From a virus, in IMG/VR virus record IMGVR_UViG_3300044709_000119, positions 1 to 47,688 of that record: a stretch of 47,688 nt of DNA, one strand, 5' to 3'. The position numbers and the translations under genes are program-made. Each line of letters begins with the position of its first letter. Positions within the stretch are counted from its first letter, which is position 1. The notes beneath the pieces were generated by a model. That model saw nothing but the letters and a program-made list of their open reading frames with translations, was not told where the DNA came from and did no database searches. Positions 4,414 to 44,288 of this stretch are shown piece by piece.

Positions 4414-6171
4414 TCAGTCTTCTCCAGGTTGGCGTGTGCCGTACACGATTTCAGTGAGCTTGGCTGGGTCGATCTTCCCGTAGCGTCCCCAGCCCTGCTC
4501 GTTCAAGTAGGCCATGGCCTCTTTGGCCCGGTCAGCCTTCACCGCCGTCTCCACGATCCCATACTTTTTCAGCTGCTTCACCTGCTTAAGCGATGCTAAC
4601 CCATCGGCCTTGCGCCTGAACAGGGAGTCGAGAAGCTTCGAAGCAGCGGAGCGGCTCAGCCCCTCGAGCTCCTTGTCGTCGAGCCCGAACTTCTTCAGGG
4701 CATCCGCCTGGCGCTCGCTCGGAGGCTTGAACCCGAAACGCCGCGTGTAGCGCTCGGAGTCGCCCAGGTCGACGTCCAAGATCTTGAACGGATCCCACTG
4801 CGTCTCCCGCGACTTTACCCTCACCTTCGCCGCCATGGCTGCGCGGGCGAGCTTCTCTCGAGCCTCCTTGAGTGCCTCGCGGATGTCGGCCGAGTTGCCC
4901 TTCTTGAGGAGCTTTTTCGCCTCCTCTACTTCCTCGTCGGTGTGGTTTCCCGCAAGAGCGTCGACGGGTCCAACAAGCTTGTGCTTACCGGCATTTCCCA
5001 CGAAGTCCATGACCACGCAATTGGGCTTACGTGATCCCGCAATGGCGCCTCTACGACTCGCATCCTGTGACCGATCAGGAAACGAATCGATAACTCCGGG
5101 CAGCGAACGGAGGCCTCGACCAATCTTCTGAACGATGAGCGCTCGCGATTTGGTGGGTCGTCCCAGTACAATGAGTGAAGTAGGCGGCGCATCGAAACCT
5201 TCCGTCAAAATTGAGCAATTGTGGAGCTCCTTGAGCTCGCCATTCCGGAACCTTCGGATCGCGTTCTTCACCGGGCAGTCAGCGCCATCCGCACGGAGTT
5301 CGCCAGCCACCCACTCGGCGCTGCCCGGCCTGAGCGCGTTGGCTCGAGCAGCGGCCGCCTCAGCGCACCGAACCCCTGGCCAGAAGTAGAGCGCCGGCCT
5401 GTCAGGCTCGAGCTCCCGGGACCGCGCCACGATGCCGTTCACCGCCTTGAACATGGCGTCGTCTAGTTGCCCAGCCGACAGGTCACCGGCAGAGTCCTGG
5501 ACCCCGGAGATGTCAATCTCATCCAGTTGCACCGACTGACCCACGAGCGGAACCAGGAACCCGTCAGCGATGCCGTCCTCGATGTCGTACGTGAAAGCCA
5601 CATCCTCCAGGATCATCCCGAGCGCCACCTCGTCAGCACGGTCAGGAGTCGCTGTGACGCCAAGGCGCTTCGCATCGAAGAACTCGAACGCCCGCCTGTA
5701 CGTTGACGCTGTAAAATGATGCGCTTCATCTGCGATTACCAGGCCGAATCGCCCCTTCCCGAGGCGGTCAAGCCGCGCCTGGTTCATCGACTGAATGGAC
5801 CCGACTACGAGACGCTGGCTTGGAACGCTCCGCTCGTTGGCCTTCTCGACTCCGACACTCTCACCTGTCGCCACGGCAAGCGCGTCCGCAGCCTGGCGCA
5901 CGAGCTCGTCCCTGTGGGCCAGCACCAGCACGTTGGGGCTCGCATTGAAGTCGTACGGCCAGCAGCTGGCGATGTGGCTGAACGATCTGGTTTTGCCAAG
6001 TCCTGTAGCCATTACGAGCAGCGTTGACCGGTACTCCCGTAGGCTCGCCAGGATGCGCGACTCGGCCTCTGTCTGATACCAGCGAAGCCCGCTTCCGCGA
6101 GCCTCCGCCCTCACAGGAGCAGGCGGTACAGGGCGAGGAGGAGCATCGAAGAACCCAAGCTGCGAGCTCAC
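4414..6171 (-). CDS. superfamily 2 DEAD/DEAH-box helicase
   Basis: LRWYQ (Q motif), MATGLGKT (Walker A), VIADEAHH (DEAH), GVTATP (motif III); GTG start lies in the cassette tail. Confidence 0.9.
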   Translation of the reverse strand: MSSQLGFFDAPPRPVPPAPVRAEARGSGLRWYQTEAESRILASLREYRSTLLVMATGLGKTRSFSHIASCWPYDFNASPNVLVLAHRDELVRQAADALAVATGESVGVEKANERSVPSQRLVVGSIQSMNQARLDRLGKGRFGLVIADEAHHFTASTYRRAFEFFDAKRLGVTATPDRADEVALGMILEDVAFTYDIEDGIADGFLVPLVGQSVQLDEIDISGVQDSAGDLSAGQLDDAMFKAVNGIVARSRELEPDRPALYFWPGVRCAEAAAARANALRPGSAEWVAGELRADGADCPVKNAIRRFRNGELKELHNCSILTEGFDAPPTSLIVLGRPTKSRALIVQKIGRGLRSLPGVIDSFPDRSQDASRRGAIAGSRKPNCVVMDFVGNAGKHKLVGPVDALAGNHTDEEVEEAKKLLKKGNSADIREALKEAREKLARAAMAAKVRVKSRETQWDPFKILDVDLGDSERYTRRFGFKPPSERQADALKKFGLDDKELEGLSRSAASKLLDSLFRRKADGLASLKQVKQLKKYGIVETAVKADRAKEAMAYLNEQGWGRYGKIDPAKLTEIVYGTRQPGED

Positions 6172-22808: not shown

Positions 22809-23323
22809 CAGCGCCCCCTAAATTCATCAGCGACCGTCCGCTCGAGCCCAAGTCGGTTGACGTCGGTGGACCGGCCAGGTCCTTTTCCGGCAAGGCAGAG
22901 GCCCTCTGGCAATGGGTCCACATGGAGCTCAAACCGTTCCTCTTGATGGCCCAGAAGAAGATCGCCGGCATGCTCAACCAGCCACCATTCTTCGGTCATC
23001 CCATGTGGGACGGAGGCACCTGGAGAGCCGTCAGGCTGGGCGAGCTCGCGCCTGACCTGCTCGACGCAGACGAGACGCTGACAGTCGCAATGGGCGACCA
23101 CCACGTCCAGCGCGTCGACGGTGCCAGCGTCCCCCGCGTGAAGACGCTGAGCCCCGCTGGAGCTGTGGCGGGAAACGCCAAGTTCCTGTGGAACATGAGC
23201 GACCAGACGCTGACGTTTGGCTCAGCCATCGTCGCTGCCGGCTACTACTGCGAAGCGAGCTTCGATGGAGTCGCGTGGGTGCCGCTGCGGATCCTGCGCA
23301 TCGTAGGAGACCCCCCGTTTTGA
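22805..23323 (+). CDS. hypothetical protein immediately upstream of terL (172 aa)
   Basis: ATG overlaps the upstream stop (ATGA). Confidence 0.6.
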   Translation: MTAPPKFISDRPLEPKSVDVGGPARSFSGKAEALWQWVHMELKPFLLMAQKKIAGMLNQPPFFGHPMWDGGTWRAVRLGELAPDLLDADETLTVAMGDHHVQRVDGASVPRVKTLSPAGAVAGNAKFLWNMSDQTLTFGSAIVAAGYYCEASFDGVAWVPLRILRIVGDPPF

Positions 23324-25830
23324 GCGCTCCGATCTATGAGCCAAGCGCTTGGGGAGCTAAGTTCCATGCCCTGAAGGTGGACGAGGCCCTCGGTGCCGGC
23401 AGCGCCGGCCCTGGGAAAACCCTCGTGCTTCTCATGGATCCGCTCGAGCAGATAGTCACCGAAAACGAGCGAACGCTACTGCCGAAGTCCCACAAGAACT
23501 ACCTAGATCCAGGGCAGTCGACAGGGTGGGCGCTGCACTTGCGCCGCACGCGCACCATGCTCGACCAGACGATTGGGCGCGCGCAGCGCATCTACCCGCG
23601 AATTGACCCAGGTGTGAAGTGGGACGCGCAGCGCTCAACGCTGAAGTTCTCGAGCGGCTACCGGCTACAGTTCGGGCACTGCAAGGATCCTGACGACTAT
23701 CTCCAGTACTACAGTTCAGAGTTCTGTAGCGCCGCAGGCACCCAGGTGCTCATGGGAGACCGCTCGTTCAAGAGCATTGAGCAGATCGCGGTTGGCGAAG
23801 AGGTGATGACCCTGGAGGGGCCCAGGCCGGTGGTCGCCACATGGAAAACAGGCGTCAAGCCTTGCGTCGAGGCGGTCGTCCGAGACCGCGGCGCGATTGT
23901 TGGAACGCAACGATTTCCGACCACGCACCCGGTTCTTGCTGCGACCAGCGTCGGATTGCACCCAGTACCGTCGCAGGGTTCACCGAATACCGTTCAGCGA
24001 GAGCGGCCGCACGGATGGAGCTGGCAAGACTACGAATCTCGCCTCTATGGCGCTCCAGAGAGCCCGGTGAAGCGCGTTTCGAGAGTAGACCCGGAAACAG
24101 GTTTCGTAGAGTTTGGTGGTTTACACCGAGATTTTGTGCAGCTTCCAAGGTTGTCCTTCCCCGTAGTGCTTCACGAACCGACACTTCGTCGAGCCCGCTC
24201 TCGCCTCGGTTTGCCCAATGAATATGATGGGTGCGCAGGATGGCCTGAAGTGTCGATACAGCGATATCCAGGCACCGAGCTGCCTCGATTTGGCTCAGGC
24301 CCCGATCCGTCGCGAGCACAGCTACTCGTTCTGCCAACTGACGGTCATAGCGGAGAGAGTCGGCCTTGTGGTGACGCAGGTGGGCAGCCTGATCAGGGAA
24401 TAGCCACAGGTTTTCCGGCGCATTGTTGGTCTTATTCTCGTCTTCGTGGTGCACAACCTCGGCGCGTGACAGCTGACGCCGAAGAATTATCTCGGCTACT
24501 AGGCGATGCTGCTGGTAGTAGCCACTCCTCGAGCAGCGCGGATGGTCGGGGCAGTACTCGTGAACGTAGCCCATGCTCAACATGGTCCTACCCACATTTC
24601 TACTCGGGAGAGAGCCGAGTTCGCTCAGAGGACGTCCGTATTGGAAAGGTGGAGCTACGACCGGTTGGATTTCTAGAGACATTCGACCTCACGGTGGAAG
24701 GCGCGAACCACTATATAACGGACTCGGCACTGATATCAAGCCAGACCCACTTGGCCTTCGATGAACTCTGCCAGTTCCTCAAGAGCCAGTATCAAGAGCT
24801 CAAGACTCGCGTGCGTTCGAGTGACCCTATCTTGCGCAAAATGCTCAAGATCCGCTCGATGAGCAACCCCATGGTCACACACGACGGCCAGGACTTCACG
24901 GTGCGGGATCCGTACTGGGTACGGAAGCTGTTCGTCGATCCTGCGCCCGAGGGGAACGTCATGCTCACCAAGACGGTGCGGATGAGCGACGGCAGTCACC
25001 AGAAGATCACGCGCATGTACCTGCCGGCGAGGCTATCGGATAACCCAGACGCGGCATTTCGAGATGACTACGAGCGCCGCCTCCGGGACGCGCCCGCTCA
25101 CGTGCGTAGGGCACTGCTCGAGGGCGACTGGTACACCATCGCGAACGGTTTCTACTCAGATGCTTGGAACCCGGACCTACATGTGTGCGACCCGTTCGAG
25201 ATCCCGAGCGACTGGCCCAAATTCCGCTCGATGGACTGGGGGCACAAAGTTCCAGGGTGCATTCACTGGGCCGCCCTCGACCCGGATGACACACTTTTCG
25301 TGTTCCGCGAGTACACGTTCCAGGGGAAAACAGCTCGTGCGGTCGCCGAGCGGGTCCACGAGATCGAGGATGACCTGGGGTTGTGGAAAGACGGTCGATC
25401 TACAGCCTCCGGTCCCGCCGACACCCAGCTGTGGGAGGAGCGCGGTGACTCGGGGCGGTCCAAGGCGGAGGACTTTGCCGCTGAGGGGATCTCCTGGGTC
25501 CCAGCCGACAAGAAGAGCCGCCGCCGCAACGCCGAGCGCATCATCGAGCGCCTGTCGAACCACGGCAACGGCACGACGGCCCCGGGGATCGTGTTTTTCC
25601 GCAACTGCAAGCAGATAATCAAGACCTTACCGTCGATGCCGCGCCAGGAGGGTGACCCGGAAACGCCGATGGACGGAGGGGACGACCACTGGCACGACTC
25701 CTGTTGCTACCTCGTGTCCTACGTGTCTAGGCGTGACGGCTGGGCGAAACGCGACCAAGATGACGACGATGACGAACGCGACGACAAGCCGAAAGCCCGA
25801 AGGGTCGGCAGAGGGTACGGGGTCGACTGA
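23320..25830 (+). CDS. terL: terminase large subunit, interrupted by a 340-aa intein
   Basis: TTG 23320 (TTGA overlap, AGGAGA upstream); Walker A GAGSAGPGKT; Walker B-like HLAFDE immediately after the intein; nuclease-half motifs in the C-terminal part. Confidence 0.85.
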   Translation: MSAPIYEPSAWGAKFHALKVDEALGAGSAGPGKTLVLLMDPLEQIVTENERTLLPKSHKNYLDPGQSTGWALHLRRTRTMLDQTIGRAQRIYPRIDPGVKWDAQRSTLKFSSGYRLQFGHCKDPDDYLQYYSSEFCSAAGTQVLMGDRSFKSIEQIAVGEEVMTLEGPRPVVATWKTGVKPCVEAVVRDRGAIVGTQRFPTTHPVLAATSVGLHPVPSQGSPNTVQRERPHGWSWQDYESRLYGAPESPVKRVSRVDPETGFVEFGGLHRDFVQLPRLSFPVVLHEPTLRRARSRLGLPNEYDGCAGWPEVSIQRYPGTELPRFGSGPDPSRAQLLVLPTDGHSGESRPCGDAGGQPDQGIATGFPAHCWSYSRLRGAQPRRVTADAEELSRLLGDAAGSSHSSSSADGRGSTRERSPCSTWSYPHFYSGESRVRSEDVRIGKVELRPVGFLETFDLTVEGANHYITDSALISSQTHLAFDELCQFLKSQYQELKTRVRSSDPILRKMLKIRSMSNPMVTHDGQDFTVRDPYWVRKLFVDPAPEGNVMLTKTVRMSDGSHQKITRMYLPARLSDNPDAAFRDDYERRLRDAPAHVRRALLEGDWYTIANGFYSDAWNPDLHVCDPFEIPSDWPKFRSMDWGHKVPGCIHWAALDPDDTLFVFREYTFQGKTARAVAERVHEIEDDLGLWKDGRSTASGPADTQLWEERGDSGRSKAEDFAAEGISWVPADKKSRRRNAERIIERLSNHGNGTTAPGIVFFRNCKQIIKTLPSMPRQEGDPETPMDGGDDHWHDSCCYLVSYVSRRDGWAKRDQDDDDDERDDKPKARRVGRGYGVD
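23725..24744 (+). mobile_element. intein (Hint domain) within terL
   Basis: starts CSAAGTQVLMGDRSFKSIEQIAVGEEV (block A) with TTHPVLA (block B); ends ETFDLTVEGANHYITDSALISSQ followed by Thr (+1); non-canonical SQ instead of HN. Confidence 0.75.
23855..24682 (-). CDS. HNH homing-type endonuclease with C-terminal HTH repeats, encoded antisense inside the intein
   Basis: GYVHEY...GYYQQHRLVAEIILRRQLSRAEVVHHEDENKTNNAPENLWLFPDQAAHLRHH is a clear HNH_3-type motif; alternative start at MLSMGYV. Confidence 0.8.
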   Translation of the reverse strand: MSLEIQPVVAPPFQYGRPLSELGSLPSRNVGRTMLSMGYVHEYCPDHPRCSRSGYYQQHRLVAEIILRRQLSRAEVVHHEDENKTNNAPENLWLFPDQAAHLRHHKADSLRYDRQLAERVAVLATDRGLSQIEAARCLDIAVSTLQAILRTHHIHWANRGESGLDEVSVREALRGRTTLEAAQNLGVNHQTLRNLFPGLLSKRASPGSLERHRGEIRSLASSIRAAALAERYSVNPATVLGAIRRWSQQEPGAWSEIVAFQQSRRGLGRPPRRKA

Positions 25831-28142
25831 TGGCTGACGGCGACATGGAATTCGACGTGGGAGAGGAGCTCGACGACCCGGAGCCGGACATGGATCCGGA
25901 CGACATCGTCAACGAGGAGACCGAGCAGGCCGCAAACCTGGTCCCGATCTTCGTGGAGACCGACGCCGGCAAGAAGGCGCTGAAGAAGATCAGCGACCGC
26001 ATTCTGACGGACATCGACAACGCGACCGACTCCCGCGAGGAGTACGTCGAGCGCGTAGCCAAGGACTGGAAGCTGTTCGCCGGTGACCTGCCGGACAAAT
26101 CTTTCCCGTTCCAGGACTGCGCGAATCTCCACGTGCCGATCGCAATCGAGAACACGATGCGGATCACGCTCCACGCCTACGGTGAGCTCTTCGGTGACTG
26201 GACCAACGTGTTCGGTGTGCTGCCGATGGGACCCGAGGACGATATCACCGCGCAGATCCTGACGGTCCATGGCAACTGGCAGATCCGCCAGCAGATCCCA
26301 GGCTTCAAGCGCGAGCAGCACCGCGGCCTCCTGAGCTTCTTCTACATCGGCGACACCACCTGTCACTCGCTCTGGGATGGCTATTGCAACCAGCATCGGA
26401 TGCTGGCCCCGGACGAGTTCATCACCCCCTACAGCTACACGACTACCCGGCCCGACTACGCCGACCTGCCCTGGTACGGCCGCGTCTACCCGCTCTACAA
26501 GCACGAGCTCGAGCGCGAAGGAAAGGTGGGCGAGTGGCACGACGTGGAGGCAGTGCTCGAGCGCAAGTCGCCTAGCTGGGACGACGATCCAGAGCAGCGG
26601 GTCCACGAAGCCATCGCGGAGCTCAACGGAATTCACATCCCCGAGGATGACGCCCACGCACCCTTCAAGCTCTACTGGTACGAGGGCTGGATGGAACTGC
26701 CCGGCCAGGAAGAGAGCCGCTGGTGCAAGGCCATCGTCGACCCGAGGACCCGCGCCATCTTGCTGCTAACCATCCTGGAGACCCACAACTGGCAGGATAA
26801 GCAGCGCTACCTGATGCAGAGCCAGGAACGGGACACCTACTTCCAGGCCCAAGAGGCCCACCAGTCCGCCGAGATGGAGCGAGCCACCCAGGAGCAGCAG
26901 CTCTCGCTCCTCGCCCAGACCAGCATGGACCCGCAGGCTCAATTCGAGGCGTCCCAAGCCCTGCAGGCAATGGCGAACGACCCGCTGCCGCCCCCACCCG
27001 TCGCCCCATCATGGATGCAGGACCCGAATGACCCCCAGGAAGAGCCAGAACCTCCCCGCCGTGAACCGGTGCGTCTATTTGCCCACGGGGTATGTATCGA
27101 GCCTCTGGTGGGGAATCTCGGTATCGGATACGGGCGCATTCTGGCGGACTACAATCGGGCCGCCAACACGAGTCTGGACCAGTTCGTGGACGCTGCCTCG
27201 CTCGCTAATGCCGGCTGCCTGATCACTACCGACAACATCAGCTTCGAGGGCGGCTTCAGCCTTGGGATCGGGAAGCAGCTGAAGGTCAGAGGGGCAAGTG
27301 GACGCCAACTGAAGGACGACATCATGCCCTTTAGCTTCCCCCCTGCGAACCAGCAACTGCTCACGCTGGTGACCATGGCGCGCGAATCCGCGCGTGAGTC
27401 GGCCCAGAGCCCAGAGGTGCTCTCTGGCGAGCCAGGAAAGTCCGGCGAGACCTACCGCGGGCTGGCAGCGCGCATCGAGCAGGCCACCAAGATGCTCTCG
27501 GTCCAGAGCAGGAAATATCTGGACTTCTTCGAGCAGATCATGCGCAATAACGCCTTCCTGAATAGCATCTACCTGCGAGACGAGGAGCTGTTCACGGTAA
27601 CAAACCACGCGCTCCGGAGCCTGCCCACTTCGCCCGAGTCGCTGAACAGCCGCCAAGCGGGAATGCCTGCGATTCCTGGCCAGACCGGGCTCATCCCGAT
27701 CAAGGTCGGCAAGTGGATGTACGAGCGCAATTACGAGGTGGAGTTCCGCTGCGACCTTCGCTTCGCATCTCAAGCCCAACGCATCGCCGAGTCGGAAGAG
27801 ATCGTCAAGATGTCCATGACGGTGCCGATTCTGATGCAGAACCAGCAGTTCCAATACTATGCAGTCAAAAAAGACCTCGAGGCCCGAGGACGGCAAGACC
27901 TTGTTGCGATGCTTGGGCCAGCCCCTCCACCCCCGATCCCTCAACCCCCAGCGGTTCCTGGACTACCAGGTACTCCAGGGGCCGTACCAGGCGCGGGTCC
28001 GGCAGCTGCCGCGCCACCAGGGGCGAGTCCTGGACCAAATCGAGGTCCGGACGGATCTGCTGCGCCGGCGCCTCCAAATGGAGGTGTACCTGGCCGCGAG
28101 TCACACGTCGCACCCTTTTCTCCGAAACCCCAAGAGCAGTGA
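25830..28142 (+). CDS. portal protein
   Basis: 770 aa directly after terL; acidic N-terminus; Pro/Ala-rich C-terminal tail. Confidence 0.7.
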   Translation: MADGDMEFDVGEELDDPEPDMDPDDIVNEETEQAANLVPIFVETDAGKKALKKISDRILTDIDNATDSREEYVERVAKDWKLFAGDLPDKSFPFQDCANLHVPIAIENTMRITLHAYGELFGDWTNVFGVLPMGPEDDITAQILTVHGNWQIRQQIPGFKREQHRGLLSFFYIGDTTCHSLWDGYCNQHRMLAPDEFITPYSYTTTRPDYADLPWYGRVYPLYKHELEREGKVGEWHDVEAVLERKSPSWDDDPEQRVHEAIAELNGIHIPEDDAHAPFKLYWYEGWMELPGQEESRWCKAIVDPRTRAILLLTILETHNWQDKQRYLMQSQERDTYFQAQEAHQSAEMERATQEQQLSLLAQTSMDPQAQFEASQALQAMANDPLPPPPVAPSWMQDPNDPQEEPEPPRREPVRLFAHGVCIEPLVGNLGIGYGRILADYNRAANTSLDQFVDAASLANAGCLITTDNISFEGGFSLGIGKQLKVRGASGRQLKDDIMPFSFPPANQQLLTLVTMARESARESAQSPEVLSGEPGKSGETYRGLAARIEQATKMLSVQSRKYLDFFEQIMRNNAFLNSIYLRDEELFTVTNHALRSLPTSPESLNSRQAGMPAIPGQTGLIPIKVGKWMYERNYEVEFRCDLRFASQAQRIAESEEIVKMSMTVPILMQNQQFQYYAVKKDLEARGRQDLVAMLGPAPPPPIPQPPAVPGLPGTPGAVPGAGPAAAAPPGASPGPNRGPDGSAAPAPPNGGVPGRESHVAPFSPKPQEQ

Positions 28143-33502: not shown

Positions 33503-34218
33503 CCGTCAACCCGAACAGCACGCGCGAGTTCAACATCGGCGAGCTCGTGGGCCAGTCCTACAAGGTGGCCGGCCTCGTGAACTTCTCCCAGGCGGTCGAC
33601 CCGGGGCGGGCAGCGTTCGCGAAGGAGCTGCTCGAGGGGATCATCAAGCACCTCGAGGCCCAAGGGCTGCAGGTGCGAGCCGCTGACTTCCTGAACGTCG
33701 AGCTGACGGCAGGGACCGAGCGCTACACGCTGCCAGACAACGTTCTCGACATCATCGGCGACGCCGCCTACGTGCCAGGCGAGGCGCTGGACGTCGATCG
33801 TGCGGACGGCGAGACCCAGATCCGCCTCATCTCGATGGACAAGTGGCAGAAGCTCTCGAGCCATGCCGCGCAGGGGCGCCCGACGCTTCTCTACCCTCAT
33901 CGCCAGGGCGCCCAGGTAGAAGCTCGCCTTTGGCCGATCCCCCAGGAGAACGCGACTGCTCGCCTCCAGGTGCAACTGCTATACCCGAACGCCACCGACT
34001 CGAATACCACGACCGGGCTCGAGCGTCCCTGGCACCAGTTCTTCAAGTTCGCACTGGCCCACGAGCTCGCCCTCTCGAACTCCAAGCCCCTCGAGCGCTG
34101 CGTCTACCTGAAGGCTCAAGCGGATCAGTTCCTGGTAGAGTGCAAGGGTTTCAGCAACCAGCGCGCCAACGGCCAATTCCGGCTGTCCCACGGCGGCAAC
34201 AACAGGTGGCGACGTTGA
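33499..34218 (+). CDS. head-to-tail adaptor (P22 gp4 / T7 gp11-like)
   Basis: N-terminal ELVGQSYKVAGLV...AAFAKELLEGIIKHLEAQG parallels the gp4/gp11 N-termini (DLVRAALRKLGV...DAVDDLEAMMAEW). Confidence 0.45.
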   Translation: MTVNPNSTREFNIGELVGQSYKVAGLVNFSQAVDPGRAAFAKELLEGIIKHLEAQGLQVRAADFLNVELTAGTERYTLPDNVLDIIGDAAYVPGEALDVDRADGETQIRLISMDKWQKLSSHAAQGRPTLLYPHRQGAQVEARLWPIPQENATARLQVQLLYPNATDSNTTTGLERPWHQFFKFALAHELALSNSKPLERCVYLKAQADQFLVECKGFSNQRANGQFRLSHGGNNRWRR

Positions 34219-35030
34219 ACTTCTACCAGAATGGCCTTGGAGAGAACCTGGGCGACGAGCTTTGCACCTCGGAGCCCCTGATGCTCCCAACGGGTGCGTC
34301 CGCCTGGTGGGTGAATTCTGCCACCGGCGCCGATGCGGCAAGCCCTGCCGGCCAGAACCGCGAGAAGCCGCTGGCCACGCTCTCCCAGGCGGTCACCAAT
34401 GCGCTGGCTGGCGACATCATCGTGCTGATGGATGGCCACACCGAGACGGGCTACGCCGCGACGCTGCTGGTCTCGAAGGCGGGCCTCAAGATCGTCGGAG
34501 CGGGTAGCGATGGTGGGATCCCCACGGTGACCCTCTCGTTTGCCTCCACGGGCAGCATTACACTGAATGCGGCAGACTGCGAAATTCGCAACGTGAAGTT
34601 CACGACCCGCACCGGCGCCGGTGCTGGCGCGAAGGTGACGCTGACCACCCAGACGGCGTGCCGCGGCTGCTACTTCGAGTGCGCAGCCAACGATACCGGA
34701 CCGGCCGTCTCGCTGTTCACTGGGGCCGACTACTGCCAGGTCTCGGGGTGCACCTTCCTCTCGACTGCCACGTCCACGACTGCGCAGCCAGAGAGCGCAA
34801 TCAAGGCGGCTGGGGCCATCACGGGGCCATGGATCTACGACTGCATCGTCAGCGATGGTACAGTCGGATTCTCCAATCCCAACTCGCTGGACTTGTCGGC
34901 GGCCGCGATGACTCGGTTCAAGCTCGAGCGCGTATCGTTCCTGCTCGGAGCAGACGGCAAGCTCCACGCATCTTCCACCGGGTACGCGGTCGGCTGCACC
35001 ACCACCGGAGGCGGCGCGCTGCGCTGGTAA
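34215..35030 (+). CDS. beta-helix protein (second pectate-lyase-like protein)
   Basis: TTG overlaps the upstream stop (TTGA); PLATLSQAVTNALAGDIIVLMDGH...CEIRNVKF...CRGCYFE...CQVSGCTF. Confidence 0.55.
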   Translation: MNFYQNGLGENLGDELCTSEPLMLPTGASAWWVNSATGADAASPAGQNREKPLATLSQAVTNALAGDIIVLMDGHTETGYAATLLVSKAGLKIVGAGSDGGIPTVTLSFASTGSITLNAADCEIRNVKFTTRTGAGAGAKVTLTTQTACRGCYFECAANDTGPAVSLFTGADYCQVSGCTFLSTATSTTAQPESAIKAAGAITGPWIYDCIVSDGTVGFSNPNSLDLSAAAMTRFKLERVSFLLGADGKLHASSTGYAVGCTTTGGGALRW

Positions 35031-35033
35031 CGC

Positions 35034-36668
35034 ATGCACTTGATTGACCCAGTTGCCAGCGGACTTCGAGGCTGCGAAGACGGCTCTGTGGACGTGTTCG
35101 TGCGTGGCACCGGCGTGCGCGCCCGGTACTACGACAGCTTCGAAGCGGACCAGCCAATCTCTCCGACAGGTTCGCTAGCTCTCGACAGCAACGGTTCTAG
35201 GGTAATCTACGTCAACCAGCTCGTAGAGGTGGTGGCCTACGACCAATACGGCACAGAGCAGCGCCGGTTTGTCGCCGGCAGCAACGCCTCGGCCGTCGAG
35301 GTCATCTCCCGCAGCCTGACCGGGACCGACTACGAGACTGGCCAATCCGCAGCCAGCAAGCCCACCACCGAGCAGGTTGCCTGGGACCGGATGCTTACGA
35401 GCTTCGGGGCCCTGGACTTCAATGTCCTGGTGGGAGGATCCGCGGTCACTCTGCAGACGGCCCTGAGCCAGGTCAGCGGGCTGTTCTTCAACGTGCGGAC
35501 CTACGGCGCCATCGGCAACGGTGTGGCCGACGACACCTCAGCGATCCAGACAGCAATCAACGCCGCTCATGCAGCGGGCGACTCCGTGGTCGGGCTCCCG
35601 GCCGGCTCCTACAAGATCGTTGGCACGCTCACGATCTACTCCGGCATGTCGCTGCTCGGCGCAGGGTGCGGGGCGAGTGGCACTCAGCTGATCTTCACCC
35701 ATGCGACAGCCGATGGTGTGGTGTTCGCCGCGGCCGGGAGTGTGGCGGACATCACTCGGATCAGTGGGATGCGCCTAATCCTCGGCGCCAACAACTCGGG
35801 GATCCTTTTACACCTGACCAAGGCATCGGTGCACGTGCTACTGACGTCGGTCGAGTTCACCGTTGGGGCATTCGCCTCCACTGGCTCTCTCGTCGAAGCG
35901 GACGCCGCGCTGACGGACGTTCGGGTCATCGCATTTGCGTGTCGGTTCGTCGGGTCGACGGCGACGAACGCCCTGGCATACCTGCGTTCTGGGCTGCTGT
36001 TCACGATCTGCTGCGCGTTCAAGGCAGGCGGCGGGTCTGTCGGCGGGGGCGGTTTCCGGTCGGTAGACGGCGGAGCGGCCATCGCCTGCCAGTTCGACAA
36101 CTCTGCGGTGAGCGCTGGCGGATACTTCCCGTTGGCGATAGCGACGACTGGGGCAAACACGGGCGCCGTGCTCGGGTGTTCGTTCGGCCCAGGCGCGGGC
36201 GGCATACTGGCGGTATCCATCTCGGATTCGATGGAGTTCGGTAATGCGTTCGATCCGACGATCGGCGTCAGCGGTGTGGCCAGCGGGCTGTTTTCTAGGC
36301 TGCGGCTCGCGTCTATCGAATCCACCTACCAAGAGCAAGTGGTCGCGGCGGCAACGGCTACTATCCCGAACAATGCCGGATTCCACGTGGTCCGGAAAAC
36401 TGACGCCTCTGGCACGTTGGACCTGACACTTCCAGCGTGGCGACAGGGCGGGCGTTTCACGCTCGTGGTCCACAACGACAACGCCGCTGGCATCGCCGCG
36501 CTCGCGCTGACTGACCCGGGAGGGCAAGGACACCGCGGGACACTGCCCGCTGTAGCGGGCGACAGTTTCACGGTACTCAAGTTCTACGCCATCACCTCTA
36601 CGGGCGGTGGTACTCCACAACTCTGGGGGTTCTACGTGCCGCCCAACTCAACCAGTCTCCTGGAGTGA
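35034..36668 (+). CDS. tailspike / polysaccharide depolymerase (Pectate_lyase_3-type)
   Basis: FFNVRTYGAIGNGVADDTSAIQTAINAAHAAGDSVVGLPAGSYKI is the classic N-terminal signature of beta-helix glycanases. Confidence 0.8.
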   Translation: MHLIDPVASGLRGCEDGSVDVFVRGTGVRARYYDSFEADQPISPTGSLALDSNGSRVIYVNQLVEVVAYDQYGTEQRRFVAGSNASAVEVISRSLTGTDYETGQSAASKPTTEQVAWDRMLTSFGALDFNVLVGGSAVTLQTALSQVSGLFFNVRTYGAIGNGVADDTSAIQTAINAAHAAGDSVVGLPAGSYKIVGTLTIYSGMSLLGAGCGASGTQLIFTHATADGVVFAAAGSVADITRISGMRLILGANNSGILLHLTKASVHVLLTSVEFTVGAFASTGSLVEADAALTDVRVIAFACRFVGSTATNALAYLRSGLLFTICCAFKAGGGSVGGGGFRSVDGGAAIACQFDNSAVSAGGYFPLAIATTGANTGAVLGCSFGPGAGGILAVSISDSMEFGNAFDPTIGVSGVASGLFSRLRLASIESTYQEQVVAAATATIPNNAGFHVVRKTDASGTLDLTLPAWRQGGRFTLVVHNDNAAGIAALALTDPGGQGHRGTLPAVAGDSFTVLKFYAITSTGGGTPQLWGFYVPPNSTSLLE

Positions 36669-41433: not shown

Positions 41434-44288
41434 TGGACGACGAATACAAGGACTACGCATCTATGCGCGACGCGATGAGGACAGGGATCCTCGTTGACTG
41501 GCGCACGGGAGCGGAGCACCCGGTCGGCCCCAATGACAAGCGCATTTTGGGCTCGGCCATGGCGCGCTACGAGAGCGTGAACCCAGGCGCACGCGAAGGA
41601 GTTGTTCCGCATGGCGCAGACGAGGCGGCTCCGGATCCGATCGCTGCCGCGCAAGCTGACACGAGTCGGTCTCCGTTCGAGAGCGGCAACACCGTCCCGG
41701 TTGCGCACGCTCCGAAGGCTGGCCCCGCTGGCGCCCCCGGTGACCTCTACTTCGATCCCGATCGCAATGCCGCTGCCAAGGCTTTGGGGCATGCCCCGTC
41801 CCCCGTCGAGCTCGAGGCATTCCAGAACCAGCAATGGAATGACGCGGCAACTCAGGCCGAGTCATCGGGACGCTACGTGGAGCGCGTGCCGTCTACCCTG
41901 GCCGGCTCCCATCTGCCACCTGGATCAAGTTTCGGTGAGCGAGCTCGAGAGAAGGTCCTGAGCGGGCTCGATATCGCCGCAGCTGGCGCGCACGGCGTCC
42001 TTGGTGGCATCGTCCCTGGAGGCGGGAAGCTTGCGGCGGCAGCCATTGGCGGGCCCGAATACGCAGCCCAGGCGCAGGAGAGCGTTTCTCGCCACCCGGA
42101 GGCAGCTTTTGCCGGGTCGCTATACGGTGGCGCAAAGGGTATCGCTACCAAGGCGGCAGGGTCGGCCTATGGGGCCCTTACAAGACTTGGCAGCAAGCTC
42201 GTGCCCAATGCGTCCGCAGCGCTTGGCCTGGCCGGCAGACTGGGCGCAGCGTCAGCCTCTGGGGCAGCTGGCGGAGCGCTCCAGGCCGAAGGTGAGAACC
42301 TGGCGAGTGAGGCGGTCGGCCAAGCTCCAGACCAGAGCGTTGGCCAGATGGCGCTGCTCGGTGGAGCGCTGGGCGGCGGAGCGCACCTGCTTGGCGAGGG
42401 CTTCCGCGCAGGAGCTGGCGCCATCGAGCGAGGGAAGTTCGGGCCTGGTCTCGCCGCTGGCGAAGAACTCGGCGGGAGGCCCACTCTCACCGGCTACAAG
42501 ATGACACCCGACTCCCCGCTCCGTGAGCTTGAACAGGCTCGCGAAGCTGGGCGCCTCGGGTCGACGGCTGACGTAGCGGCGGAGCGATTGGCACCGAAAT
42601 ACGCCGAGGCTGGCGGTAGCATCACCCGAGGAGTGAACCAGGCAGCCTCCACCGAGTCACAGGCGATGCGCGAGTCGCTAGTGCAGCCTGCGCCAGTTCC
42701 GCCGGAGTCTCCGCTGGATGCCAGCGGCGTCGCGAAGTTCCTTGAGCGACCAGCCGTGCCGGACCCGCTGCCTCCAGCGCTCTCGCCGGAACATGCCGAT
42801 GCGGTTGCCAAGTTCACACGAGGGTACGACTCGGCAATTCGCCATCTTCAGGGGGGCGGGACTCGCGAAGAGGTAGAAGCGTGGGCCGCTGCCAATGCGA
42901 AGAAATGGCACTCGGCATCTCCGGCCGAGTACGCCGCCGAGGCCGAGGGGGCCGCTGCTGCGCTCAAGGACGCGCTCGAGCAGCACAGTGCTGGCCTTCC
43001 CACGGTCTACCGCGGCATGGGTCTGGATCCGGCGAAGACCCAAGAGTTCACCGGGTCCCACTCGTTTGGCCTTGGCAACCGCGCGACGTCGACCTCCTTC
43101 GATCCACACATTGCCAGCAACTTCGCATGGGGATCTGAGCCAGCCGGCGTCAAAACGCCAGACATCGTGACGCTGAAACTCAAGGGCGCGCAGGGGATCC
43201 CGGTGGGCGAGTACGGCGATGAACTGTTCCGCGGAGAACGCGAGGCCATCGAGAAGGGCGGTCGCTACAAGGTTACCGGGCGCCACTTTGACGAGTCGGA
43301 TCCGCGCGTGAAGTACGTCGAAGGCGAAGCGGTTGGCCCTGACTACAAGGACCCGACGGTTCCGCAGACCGTGTCCATGGAGCCAGTAATGAAGGCGGCG
43401 GCGGGAGAGCTCCAAGGTCCTAACGTTCTCCCCGATGGGCCGCTCCGGAAGATCCTCCAAACCGTGGTCGAGCGGCCGCAGGTGAATGTCGAGGAATGGG
43501 AGCGCCTGGTTGGCCAGATCGACCAGCTTGCCAAGCTCGACAAGGCGAAGGGCGTCGTGGACCCGCGACTCGCCCGAATCTCAGCAGCGATGCGCGAGAG
43601 CGCCGAGGGATTCCCTGGCCTGAACCAGATGCGCGCAGGCCAGGCGGAGCGCTTCGCTGCCAACGAGAAGACCATGAGCCATGGCGGGCTCCCTCTGCGC
43701 AACAAGGAGGTGCCCGGCTGGAACGAGATGACCGCCGACGAGCAGAAGCACCTGTACGGCGTGATCCGCAACCAGACGGGTGACATCGCCAAGCCACCGG
43801 GGCAGCCCAAGAGCTCAGTGCCGATGGTGCGCCGCGCGATGGACCAGATCGCAGGCTCCGCCGGTCTCCGGCAGGAGCTCGACCTGATCCCGAAGCTCGA
43901 GAGCGTTGACCAGGTTCGCCAGGCGCTGCGCCCCCACGGTCTCAACGCGCGGCTGCACGCCGGTGGTGTCTCCACGAGCGCCATGGGCAAGGCGGCCGAG
44001 TTCGCCGAACTGCGGGGGTATCCCACCATCCGGGCCCTCGGGTCTGTGCCTCCCGACGCCGACCTGTTACAGTTGCTGCAAAAGAGCCCGAACACCATGG
44101 AACTCCTGAAGTCAATGCGGCAAAAGCAACTGGGCGTGCCCCAGTTAGCGAACCGCCTTGGGTTGCGCGGAGGAGTCATCGGCGCTCGTGGCGCGGCGGC
44201 CGTCGGCGAGATCACTGACGAGGATGCGAAGAACCTCTACGAGCTCATGAAGCTGCGCCAGCAGCAGGAACAACAGGCCCAGCCATGA
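41430..44288 (+). CDS. large internal virion (ejection) protein with ADP-ribosyltransferase-like domain
   Basis: 952 aa; Gly/Ala-rich hydrophobic N-terminal third; central TVYRG...ATSTSF...FRGEREAIE (R-S-E motif set). Confidence 0.6.
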   Translation: MMDDEYKDYASMRDAMRTGILVDWRTGAEHPVGPNDKRILGSAMARYESVNPGAREGVVPHGADEAAPDPIAAAQADTSRSPFESGNTVPVAHAPKAGPAGAPGDLYFDPDRNAAAKALGHAPSPVELEAFQNQQWNDAATQAESSGRYVERVPSTLAGSHLPPGSSFGERAREKVLSGLDIAAAGAHGVLGGIVPGGGKLAAAAIGGPEYAAQAQESVSRHPEAAFAGSLYGGAKGIATKAAGSAYGALTRLGSKLVPNASAALGLAGRLGAASASGAAGGALQAEGENLASEAVGQAPDQSVGQMALLGGALGGGAHLLGEGFRAGAGAIERGKFGPGLAAGEELGGRPTLTGYKMTPDSPLRELEQAREAGRLGSTADVAAERLAPKYAEAGGSITRGVNQAASTESQAMRESLVQPAPVPPESPLDASGVAKFLERPAVPDPLPPALSPEHADAVAKFTRGYDSAIRHLQGGGTREEVEAWAAANAKKWHSASPAEYAAEAEGAAAALKDALEQHSAGLPTVYRGMGLDPAKTQEFTGSHSFGLGNRATSTSFDPHIASNFAWGSEPAGVKTPDIVTLKLKGAQGIPVGEYGDELFRGEREAIEKGGRYKVTGRHFDESDPRVKYVEGEAVGPDYKDPTVPQTVSMEPVMKAAAGELQGPNVLPDGPLRKILQTVVERPQVNVEEWERLVGQIDQLAKLDKAKGVVDPRLARISAAMRESAEGFPGLNQMRAGQAERFAANEKTMSHGGLPLRNKEVPGWNEMTADEQKHLYGVIRNQTGDIAKPPGQPKSSVPMVRRAMDQIAGSAGLRQELDLIPKLESVDQVRQALRPHGLNARLHAGGVSTSAMGKAAEFAELRGYPTIRALGSVPPDADLLQLLQKSPNTMELLKSMRQKQLGVPQLANRLGLRGGVIGARGAAAVGEITDEDAKNLYELMKLRQQQEQQAQP

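Follow-up and report, generated by a model that had tools for sequence, protein, structure and literature searches.

The 47,688-nucleotide stretch of viral DNA analysed here (IMG/VR virus record IMGVR_UViG_3300044709_000119, hereafter the window) carries on its plus strand a gene for the large terminase subunit (TerL) that contains an intein coding region and, inside that region on the opposite strand, an intact gene for an HNH-type endonuclease. It is probable that the intein is a working one and that its homing endonuclease, made of an HNH nuclease part and helix-turn-helix (HTH) modules, is specified by this separate antisense gene nested in the intein DNA. An initial annotation of the window had placed a TerL open reading frame (ORF) of 837 codons with a TTG start and an HNH ORF at positions 23855-24682, and both ORFs lie where it put them. 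The plus-strand frame is open without interruption from 23188 to 25830 (880 amino acids counted from the first GTG, at 23188), with the TerL precursor ORF spanning 23320-25830 from the TTG (836 amino acids plus the stop codon). The HNH gene runs on the minus strand from the ATG at 24682 to the stop codon at 23855-23857 and encodes 275 amino acids, so that about 0.8 kb is open on both strands.

The identity of the plus-strand product as a large terminase is supported by its match to phrog_979 (terminase large subunit) at 1e-15, and by an AlphaFold model that matched the TerL of phage D6E (2.4e-12) together with the large terminases of P22, G20c, Sf6 and HK97. More than 100 TerL homologues of about 500 amino acids, with identities up to 73% and several of them with the Pfam Terminase_6N domain, are devoid of an intein, including the closest extein relatives (72-73% identity), while at least 13 long homologues (787-865 amino acids, 35-51% identity) carry an insert at the identical site. 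The initial annotation had expected an alignment with intein-less homologues to fix the insertion point, and this was indeed obtained: P0004 (73% identity) and P0010 align across the junction as ...YYSSEF-T(L/A)(L/I)..FDEL, free of any insert, which delimits an intein of 340 codons (23725-24744, plus strand), from Cys1 to a terminal Gln. The insertion separates ...YYSSEF from THLAFDE, three residues ahead of the Walker B motif contained in the latter. A blastn search of GenBank phages with the TerL region returned no match.

The insert has the hallmarks of a splicing domain of the Hint type. Its N-terminal motif was recognized at Cys180 of the 880-residue ORF (Pfam Hom_end_hint, 4.6e-6), and block A matched PI-SceI at 2.4e-6. 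Cys1 is invariant across nine aligned inteins, and so are the TLEG and PTTHPVL sequences, the latter corresponding to block B with its TxxH motif. The C-terminal end reads ...FDLTVEGANHYITDSALISSQ|T, with blocks F and G represented by TFDLTVEGANHYIT. The junction SSQ|T of the window is replaced in relatives by NAQ|T, SSN|T, NRN|C or NAQ|S, so that only competent residues replace one another at the splice junction (Q or N as the last intein residue, with T, S or C next). The insert is probably a class-1-type intein, and the essentiality of TerL together with the conserved junction residues suggests that it splices.

Structure prediction agrees with this assignment. The Hint fold predicted for the precursor matched domain I of PI-SceI at 2e-5 and also Prp8 inteins; its match with the Ssp DnaB mini-intein spans the insert, with template-modelling scores of 0.66-0.69. 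In the precursor model (836-residue numbering) the two Hint halves, residues 136-210 and 421-475, are confidently predicted and come together around a disordered insert. The N-terminal subdomain corresponds to positions 23725-23949, from block A to block B with TTHPVL (predicted local distance difference test, pLDDT, 81-93), and the C-terminal one to 24580-24744, with YPHFYSGE..., block F (TFDLTVEG) and block G (ANHYIT..ISSQ; pLDDT 69-90). Residues 303-420 form a spacer of 118 residues (24226-24579) that is predicted to be disordered (pLDDT 25-36) and is antisense to the HNH catalytic domain and the first HTH module. The initial annotation had described the plus-strand centre as lacking any recognizable domain, which holds for this spacer; the ends of the overlap, by contrast, are Hint blocks B and F, and a stretch of about 215 nucleotides is predicted to be folded. 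This stretch (24004-24219; residues 229-300 of the model) reads WQDYES.L.G..ESPVKRVS ... QLP.L..V.LHE, with a pLDDT of 74-88. It exceeds the needs of a minimal Hint domain; a module with an accessory or DNA-recognition-like role is one conceivable reading, an artefact of the conservation imposed by the antisense gene another.

The minus-strand product was assigned to the HNH endonucleases by phrog_20891 (5e-16), Pfam HNH_3 (3.2e-5) and Pfam HTH_23 (2.9e-7), as the initial annotation had claimed when it proposed an intact nuclease of this type antisense to the TerL intein. Homologues number 44, with identities of 43-59%, and PF13392 is recorded for most of the relatives. The AlphaFold model has a mean pLDDT of 84.7 and is confident for residues 31-262. 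The nuclease domain (residues ~31-105; 24368-24592, minus strand; pLDDT 94-96) displays the motif QHRLVAE...VVHHEDENKTNN..NLWLF...HLRHH, in which H59, H78, H79, N87, N91, H101 and H105 are invariant among homologues, and the family profile aligns across the motif with I-HmuI (1u3e; E 0.017). The HTH-like repeats noticed after the nuclease domain were borne out by the HTH_23 score (30.5 bits, above the cut-off of 24.6), by additional matches to HTH_Tnp_1 and HTH_28, and by a model in which helices H114-H262 have pLDDT values of 78-95; three to four HTH modules can be distinguished (residues ~110-262; 23897-24355, minus strand), presumably serving DNA recognition. With the whole model as query, Foldseek found no significant match in the PDB, probably because the modules are flexibly linked. 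Both ends of the ORF overlie Hint splicing blocks, with block B at its 3' end and block F at its 5' end. In 50,697 GenBank phage records the family was detected by tblastn only as five weak matches to the HNH domain, the two inspected ones being free-standing genes (in phiH, by the listed annotation, and in Pseudomonas phage BRkr).

In the source annotation of the contig the HNH gene was called as P0121, with 242 amino acids counted from Met34; the start conserved in the family is the upstream ATG at 24682 and not Met34. A collection search with full-length TerL found no identical protein, the best match having 49-50% identity. The presence of the HNH gene and the absence of the full TerL from the source annotation indicate that gene callers keep one of two overlapping genes.

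The TerL and HNH frames are related as antisense phase 1, in which the first codon positions lie opposite each other and position 2 lies opposite position 3. Across the other genes of the window this is the most stop-rich antisense phase (0.032 stops per codon), and its longest open run there is 179 codons, against 277 at TerL/HNH. Codon shuffling, which the initial annotation had suggested, led to the expectation of 6.1-6.7 stops in the TerL frame when synonymous codons of the HNH gene were permuted, and none is observed. The probability of zero stops was 5e-5 in 20,000 permutations, and no stop-free case occurred in 20,000 draws from the codon usage of the window itself; the other two antisense phases of the HNH gene contain 8 and 12 stops. 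Individual codon choices reflect the same avoidance of stops. Ile65-Ile66 of the HNH protein is written ATA-ATT (24485-24490, minus strand), where the common ATC or ATT at Ile65 would create a stop in the TerL frame, and ATA accounts for just 3 of the 177 Ile codons in the genes of the window; Val187-Asn188, written GTA-AAC, is another place where common codons would produce stops. Given the permutations, the codon-usage draws and the phase background of the window, chance is excluded as the origin of the double open frame. The odds of 1e-3 to 1e-4 estimated beforehand were right in calling it unlikely and slightly generous in magnitude, the simulation giving ~5e-5 or less.

The same arrangement is found well beyond the window. 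A family DNA set was assembled from three TerL homologues (L001-L003) and seven IMG/VR contigs retrieved with the HNH profile (L004-L010, L010 being the contig of L003), and every locus in it, with guanine-cytosine (GC) contents of 0.51-0.63, contains the nested pair with both frames open, as is the case in all ten loci of the family. In a wider survey of the best 80 IMG/VR matches to this HNH type, 66 had the HNH gene antisense within long ORFs. After de-duplication, and with the window and L001-L003 added, the distinct loci numbered 54 nested and 14 free-standing. In the nested loci (GC 40-64%) no host-frame stop was observed, against 329 expected by permutation, in line with the earlier claim that the host frame is held open by selection. 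The free-standing relatives had 106 stops where 115 were expected, and this agreement validates the null model. Each of the three phases could be rendered stop-free, or nearly so, through synonymous choice alone, yet the relative phase of the open host frame never differs among the nested loci, which argues for shared ancestry rather than constraint.

The host ORFs of these elements are diverse. They comprise three TerL families and helicases, with Terminase_6N/6C, Terminase_3, ResIII/Helicase_C and AAA_30/UvrD_C proteins represented, as well as a giant DNA-helicase ORF and a giant methyltransferase-like ORF; another nested locus, L044, has a host ORF of 852 amino acids. A Pfam scan of ten host ORFs gave an Intein_splicing match in eight, and this match encloses the HNH ORF in both loci for which coordinates were compared (L046 and L073). 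Some alignments show a further peculiarity: in the TerL homologues P0006, P0013, P0014 and P0015 a gap of about 50 codons interrupts the intein centre, and the HNH homologue P0159 has the same gap, which removes its first HTH. If P0159 belongs to one of those TerL loci, this would suggest an in-phase deletion tolerated by both frames.

Selection on both strands, as proposed in the initial annotation, was substantiated by aligning the ten family loci codon by codon and comparing identity among the three codon positions. Up to ~23875 and from ~24667 onwards, that is, in the Hint blocks and exteins, host position 3 is the most variable, meaning that the host frame is constrained there. Between ~23947 and 24559 variation is highest at host position 2, the equivalent of HNH position 3, while amino-acid identity in the host frame drops to 0.14-0.45; it is therefore the HNH frame that is under purifying selection in the intein centre, over HNH residues ~41-245. 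Within the disordered spacer, host amino-acid identity among ten relatives is 0.14-0.37. Three islands have all codon positions conserved: block B (23875-23947), WQDYES.L.G (24019-24055) and YPHFYSGE..SE.VR (24559-24660). In block B, with all three positions conserved, neither frame is singled out. The structure predictions accord with this map, and taken together they indicate that, over most of the overlap, a real gene faces a spacer that is just free of stops. A different situation may exist at 24004-24219, where the host segment predicted to be folded overlaps HNH residues 154-226 (pLDDT 78-93): these ~215 nucleotides may be genuine dual coding, with both frames folded according to the models.

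The HNH gene apparently also has its own promoter-like, Shine-Dalgarno-like and start signals, kept by means of rare host codons. A sigma-70-like promoter (TTGATA-18 nucleotides-TATAGT; 10 of 12 consensus matches) lies on the minus strand at 24710-24739, antisense to block G and the last intein codons, and is the sole site of this kind within 23500-25300. It is followed by GTGAGGTC, a gap of four nucleotides and the ATG at 24682, the Shine-Dalgarno-like GAGG (24687-24690, minus strand) being antisense to the block F codons for D-L-T-V. The signals are thus the complement of block G (NHYIT...ISSQ) and block F (TFDLTV). Since the -35 box does not reach beyond the last four codons of the intein, the mobile DNA contains the expression cassette in its entirety. 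The overlap of this box with the terminal intein codons (24733-24747) may mean that the promoter constrains the splice-site residues, or the reverse.

These signals are conserved. A promoter-like site exists at the equivalent position in nine of the ten family loci, with a -10 box of TATAGT or TATAAT in nine and a -35 hexamer resembling TTGAC-, TTGAT- or TTCAC- in eight (L004 and L009 deviate); an ATG is found at the equivalent position in nine, and GAGG precedes it in eight, where the arrangement is GTGAGGTC-N2-ATG. Their preservation leaves a signature in the host codons. The block F Thr is encoded by ACA in 9/10 loci, against a C-extein background of 9%, and ACA plus the T of the next codon yields CAT, the complement of ATG. 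Likewise, the block G Tyr is TAT in 9/10 loci (background 16%) and the block G Ile is ATA in 5/10 (background 5%). More distant nested loci have a near-consensus TTGACA-N16/17-TATAAT opposite NHYIT..G.VNKN|C, accompanied by AGGAG-type ribosome-binding sites. Of the 54 nested HNH genes, 14 have a promoter match of at least 10/12 upstream, whereas among 2,508 control windows the proportion is 1%.

As a general layout this has precedents. Antisense LAGLIDADG ORFs are on record for two inteins, that of DnaX in Synechocystis and the SpoVR-like one of Chloroflexus (Gorbalenya 1998, as cited by Gosselin et al.; Gogarten 2002). In 2025 Gosselin, Arsenault and Gogarten (bioRxiv 10.1101/2025.01.02.630785) reported endonucleases of the LAGLIDADG and VSR-like types encoded antisense in inteins of actinobacteriophages, those of TerL among them. 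As in the window, such inteins have an opposite-strand ORF between the splicing blocks, an uninterrupted host frame with a structureless in-frame translation, and TerL among their hosts. The nuclease found here is different, being HNH_3/I-HmuI-like with HTH modules instead of LAGLIDADG or VSR-like, and the single phase over 54 loci, the several host proteins and the signals antisense to blocks G and F are new. In the survey of Gosselin et al. (10.1101/2025.01.02.630785) HNH is given solely as an in-frame intein domain, and our full-text literature searches found no report of an antisense HNH gene in an intein. The initial annotation had considered the layout to be out of the norm, which stands for the HNH type, of which we found no antisense report; for the layout as such it does not, because of the published LAGLIDADG and VSR-like cases. 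We found no earlier description of the antisense HNH type, of how abundant it is or of the control signals built into it, and the one conserved phase, the signals in splicing blocks, the several host genes and the possible true dual coding go beyond what has been published.

Comparison with other nucleases and inteins helps to delimit the system. I-HmuI of Bacillus phage group I introns (1u3e) has a comparable HNH motif (HRLVA...VV-H-D-NK-NN...NL) and the same order of nuclease followed by DNA-binding helices, but it is intron-encoded, the similarity extends over ~40 residues, and the fold search with the whole model was not significant. Inteins whose HNH domain lies in frame (described in 1997) equally tie an HNH nuclease to an intein; there the nuclease is within the intein polypeptide, whereas in the window a gene of its own, antisense and with separate signals, encodes it.

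The proposed mode of action can be outlined as follows. TerL would be translated through the 340-codon intein, including the disordered spacer that is the antisense of the nuclease domain. The N- and C-terminal Hint halves would then assemble and splice, using Cys1, the terminal Gln and Thr+1, thereby restoring the ATPase beside Walker B. The HNH gene would be transcribed from its own sigma-70-like promoter antisense to block G and translated from the GAGG/ATG antisense to block F, and this cassette would travel with the intein. In a mixed infection the nuclease would cut or nick an intein-less terL near ...SSEF|THLAFDE... (site ...TACTACAGTTCAGAGTTC|ACCCACTTGGCCTTCGATGAA...), and repair from the intein-bearing allele would copy the element in. 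Circumstantial support for homing comes from the existence of intein-free close relatives and from the finding of the HNH-in-intein unit in several host genes.

Some observations weigh against this interpretation. The HNH_3 score of the window protein (23.9 bits) is just below the cut-off of 24.8. The penultimate intein residue is Ser instead of the usual His, which is never found there in the family (Ser, Ala, Cys, Ile, Leu, Arg or Thr occur). In known inteins a terminal Gln, as present in the window, is a slower cyclising residue. As for the expression signals, the promoter scan used an E. coli-type consensus, which may differ from that of the host, and the GAGG is just four nucleotides from the ATG. 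No near-identical copy of the element was seen in divergent exteins, the best HNH relative having 59% identity, which leaves recent mobility hypothetical. Finally, the phage is uncultured, and splicing, expression and cleavage are inferred from the sequence.

The same lack of close copies, together with the similar identities of intein and extein among relatives and the weak HNH translation suggested by the short Shine-Dalgarno spacing, would suit an intein that is functional and vertically inherited as a large mini-intein, with the antisense HNH gene a relic no longer expressed or driving homing. We consider this unlikely. An antisense ORF without function should quickly gain stops, as argued by Gosselin et al. 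(10.1101/2025.01.02.630785), yet the HNH ORF is open in every nested locus; moreover, variation is concentrated at HNH codon position 3, the catalytic residues are invariant, the fold is confidently predicted, and rare host codons preserve the HNH ATG and the -10 box. Alternatively, the HNH protein might serve the phage and be merely lodged in the intein; its task could then be that of an HTH regulator or of a packaging nuclease associated with the terminase. The three to four HTH modules are regulator-like, and many phages are reported to encode an HNH protein adjoining their terminase genes (PMC3592412). Such a role seems quite improbable for a nuclease whose type, unlike that of packaging-associated HNH proteins, is also nested, in the same antisense phase, in inteins of helicases, other proteins and a giant methyltransferase-like ORF, which has I-HmuI, a homing endonuclease, as the nearest match to its motif, and which close TerL relatives do without.

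Fractured genes offer another precedent, in which a free-standing VSR-like endonuclease gene lies between the halves of a split intein (Dassa et al. 2009, PMC2677866). They share with the window a free-standing-type endonuclease at a canonical intein insertion point in phage-like metagenomic DNA, and the HNH gene is placed where split inteins are broken, between the N4 and C-terminal blocks (Dassa et al. 2009). It could thus be imagined that TerL is made as two trans-splicing polypeptides, with the endonuclease between the halves and the open frame incidental. Fractured genes are, however, two ORFs by definition, and here a continuous, selected ORF overlaps an antisense endonuclease of another family; with host-frame stops absent from 54 of 54 non-redundant loci against the 329 expected, a split TerL is highly improbable. 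Chance formation of the HNH ORF as a shadow ORF of a GC-rich genome has a practically negligible probability. Several antisense ORFs of 260-312 amino acids do occur in the window, but they are mostly in phase 0, where stops are scarce (0.010 per codon), and not in the TerL/HNH phase 1 (0.032, with a longest chance run of 179 codons); the permutation P of ~5e-5 or less and the strong HNH homology speak equally against chance. A working intein with its homing endonuclease encoded antisense consequently remains the probable explanation.

The composite element may have originated by inversion of an ancestral in-frame HNH domain or by invasion of a free-standing gene, and the data fit both possibilities. 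A broader proposition, to which we give even chances, is that the loci represent one old and successful lineage in which Hint and antisense HNH co-evolved as a locked pair, with one fixed frame relation, signals in the complement of blocks G and F and a dual-folded stretch, and that this pair jumped among unrelated hosts (three TerL families, helicases and methyltransferase-like proteins). If true, the antisense layout would be a stable and possibly advantageous design instead of an accident en route to decay, and it could uncouple expression of the nuclease from late host-gene expression or exclude the nuclease from the precursor.

The HNH class joins the short list of endonucleases encoded antisense inside inteins, and the layout is no curiosity, since it accounts for 54 of 68 non-redundant loci in the survey of the best 80 IMG/VR matches. 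These loci constitute a natural, replicated case of long-term dual-strand coding in which selection can be mapped per strand, and they suggest that catalytic protein motifs can carry regulatory signals in their complement. They also provide a concrete test case for the invasion of pre-existing inteins by free-standing endonuclease genes ("protein splicing first"). Gosselin et al. (10.1101/2025.01.02.630785) predicted that antisense-endonuclease inteins are under-reported because annotation permits one gene per locus. With gene callers reporting one of the two genes, such inteins are recorded wrongly, as mini-inteins, as decaying inteins or as broken terminases. The spacer accepts 118 arbitrary residues, which makes the intein a candidate engineering scaffold.

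Other TerL-family members (P0016, P0028, P0098 and P0106; 850-1170 amino acids) contain Pfam LAGLIDADG_3 and/or Hom_end domains, which suggests that canonical in-frame inteins also invade their TerL family. At the end of TerL in the window, the last base of the stop codon (25828-25830) also belongs to the ATG that opens the following ORF (25830-28142, 770 amino acids), suggesting translational coupling of the two genes. This ORF is portal-sized, has a Pro/Ala-rich tail and has no Pfam match. In the relative L002 a gene with the Pfam Rv2179c-like domain (3'-5' exonuclease) is found at 5541-6059, between TerL and the portal-sized ORF, and the window has no such gene. Antisense ORFs of 260-312 amino acids lie opposite large structural genes at 25719-26657, 27075-27944, 34125-35039 and 42678-43460 (all on the minus strand); these are all in phase 0, with 0.010 stops per codon in DNA of 62% GC, and resemble ordinary shadow ORFs. 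Near its left end the window carries a tRNA-Met (CAT) gene at 2228-2305 on the minus strand.

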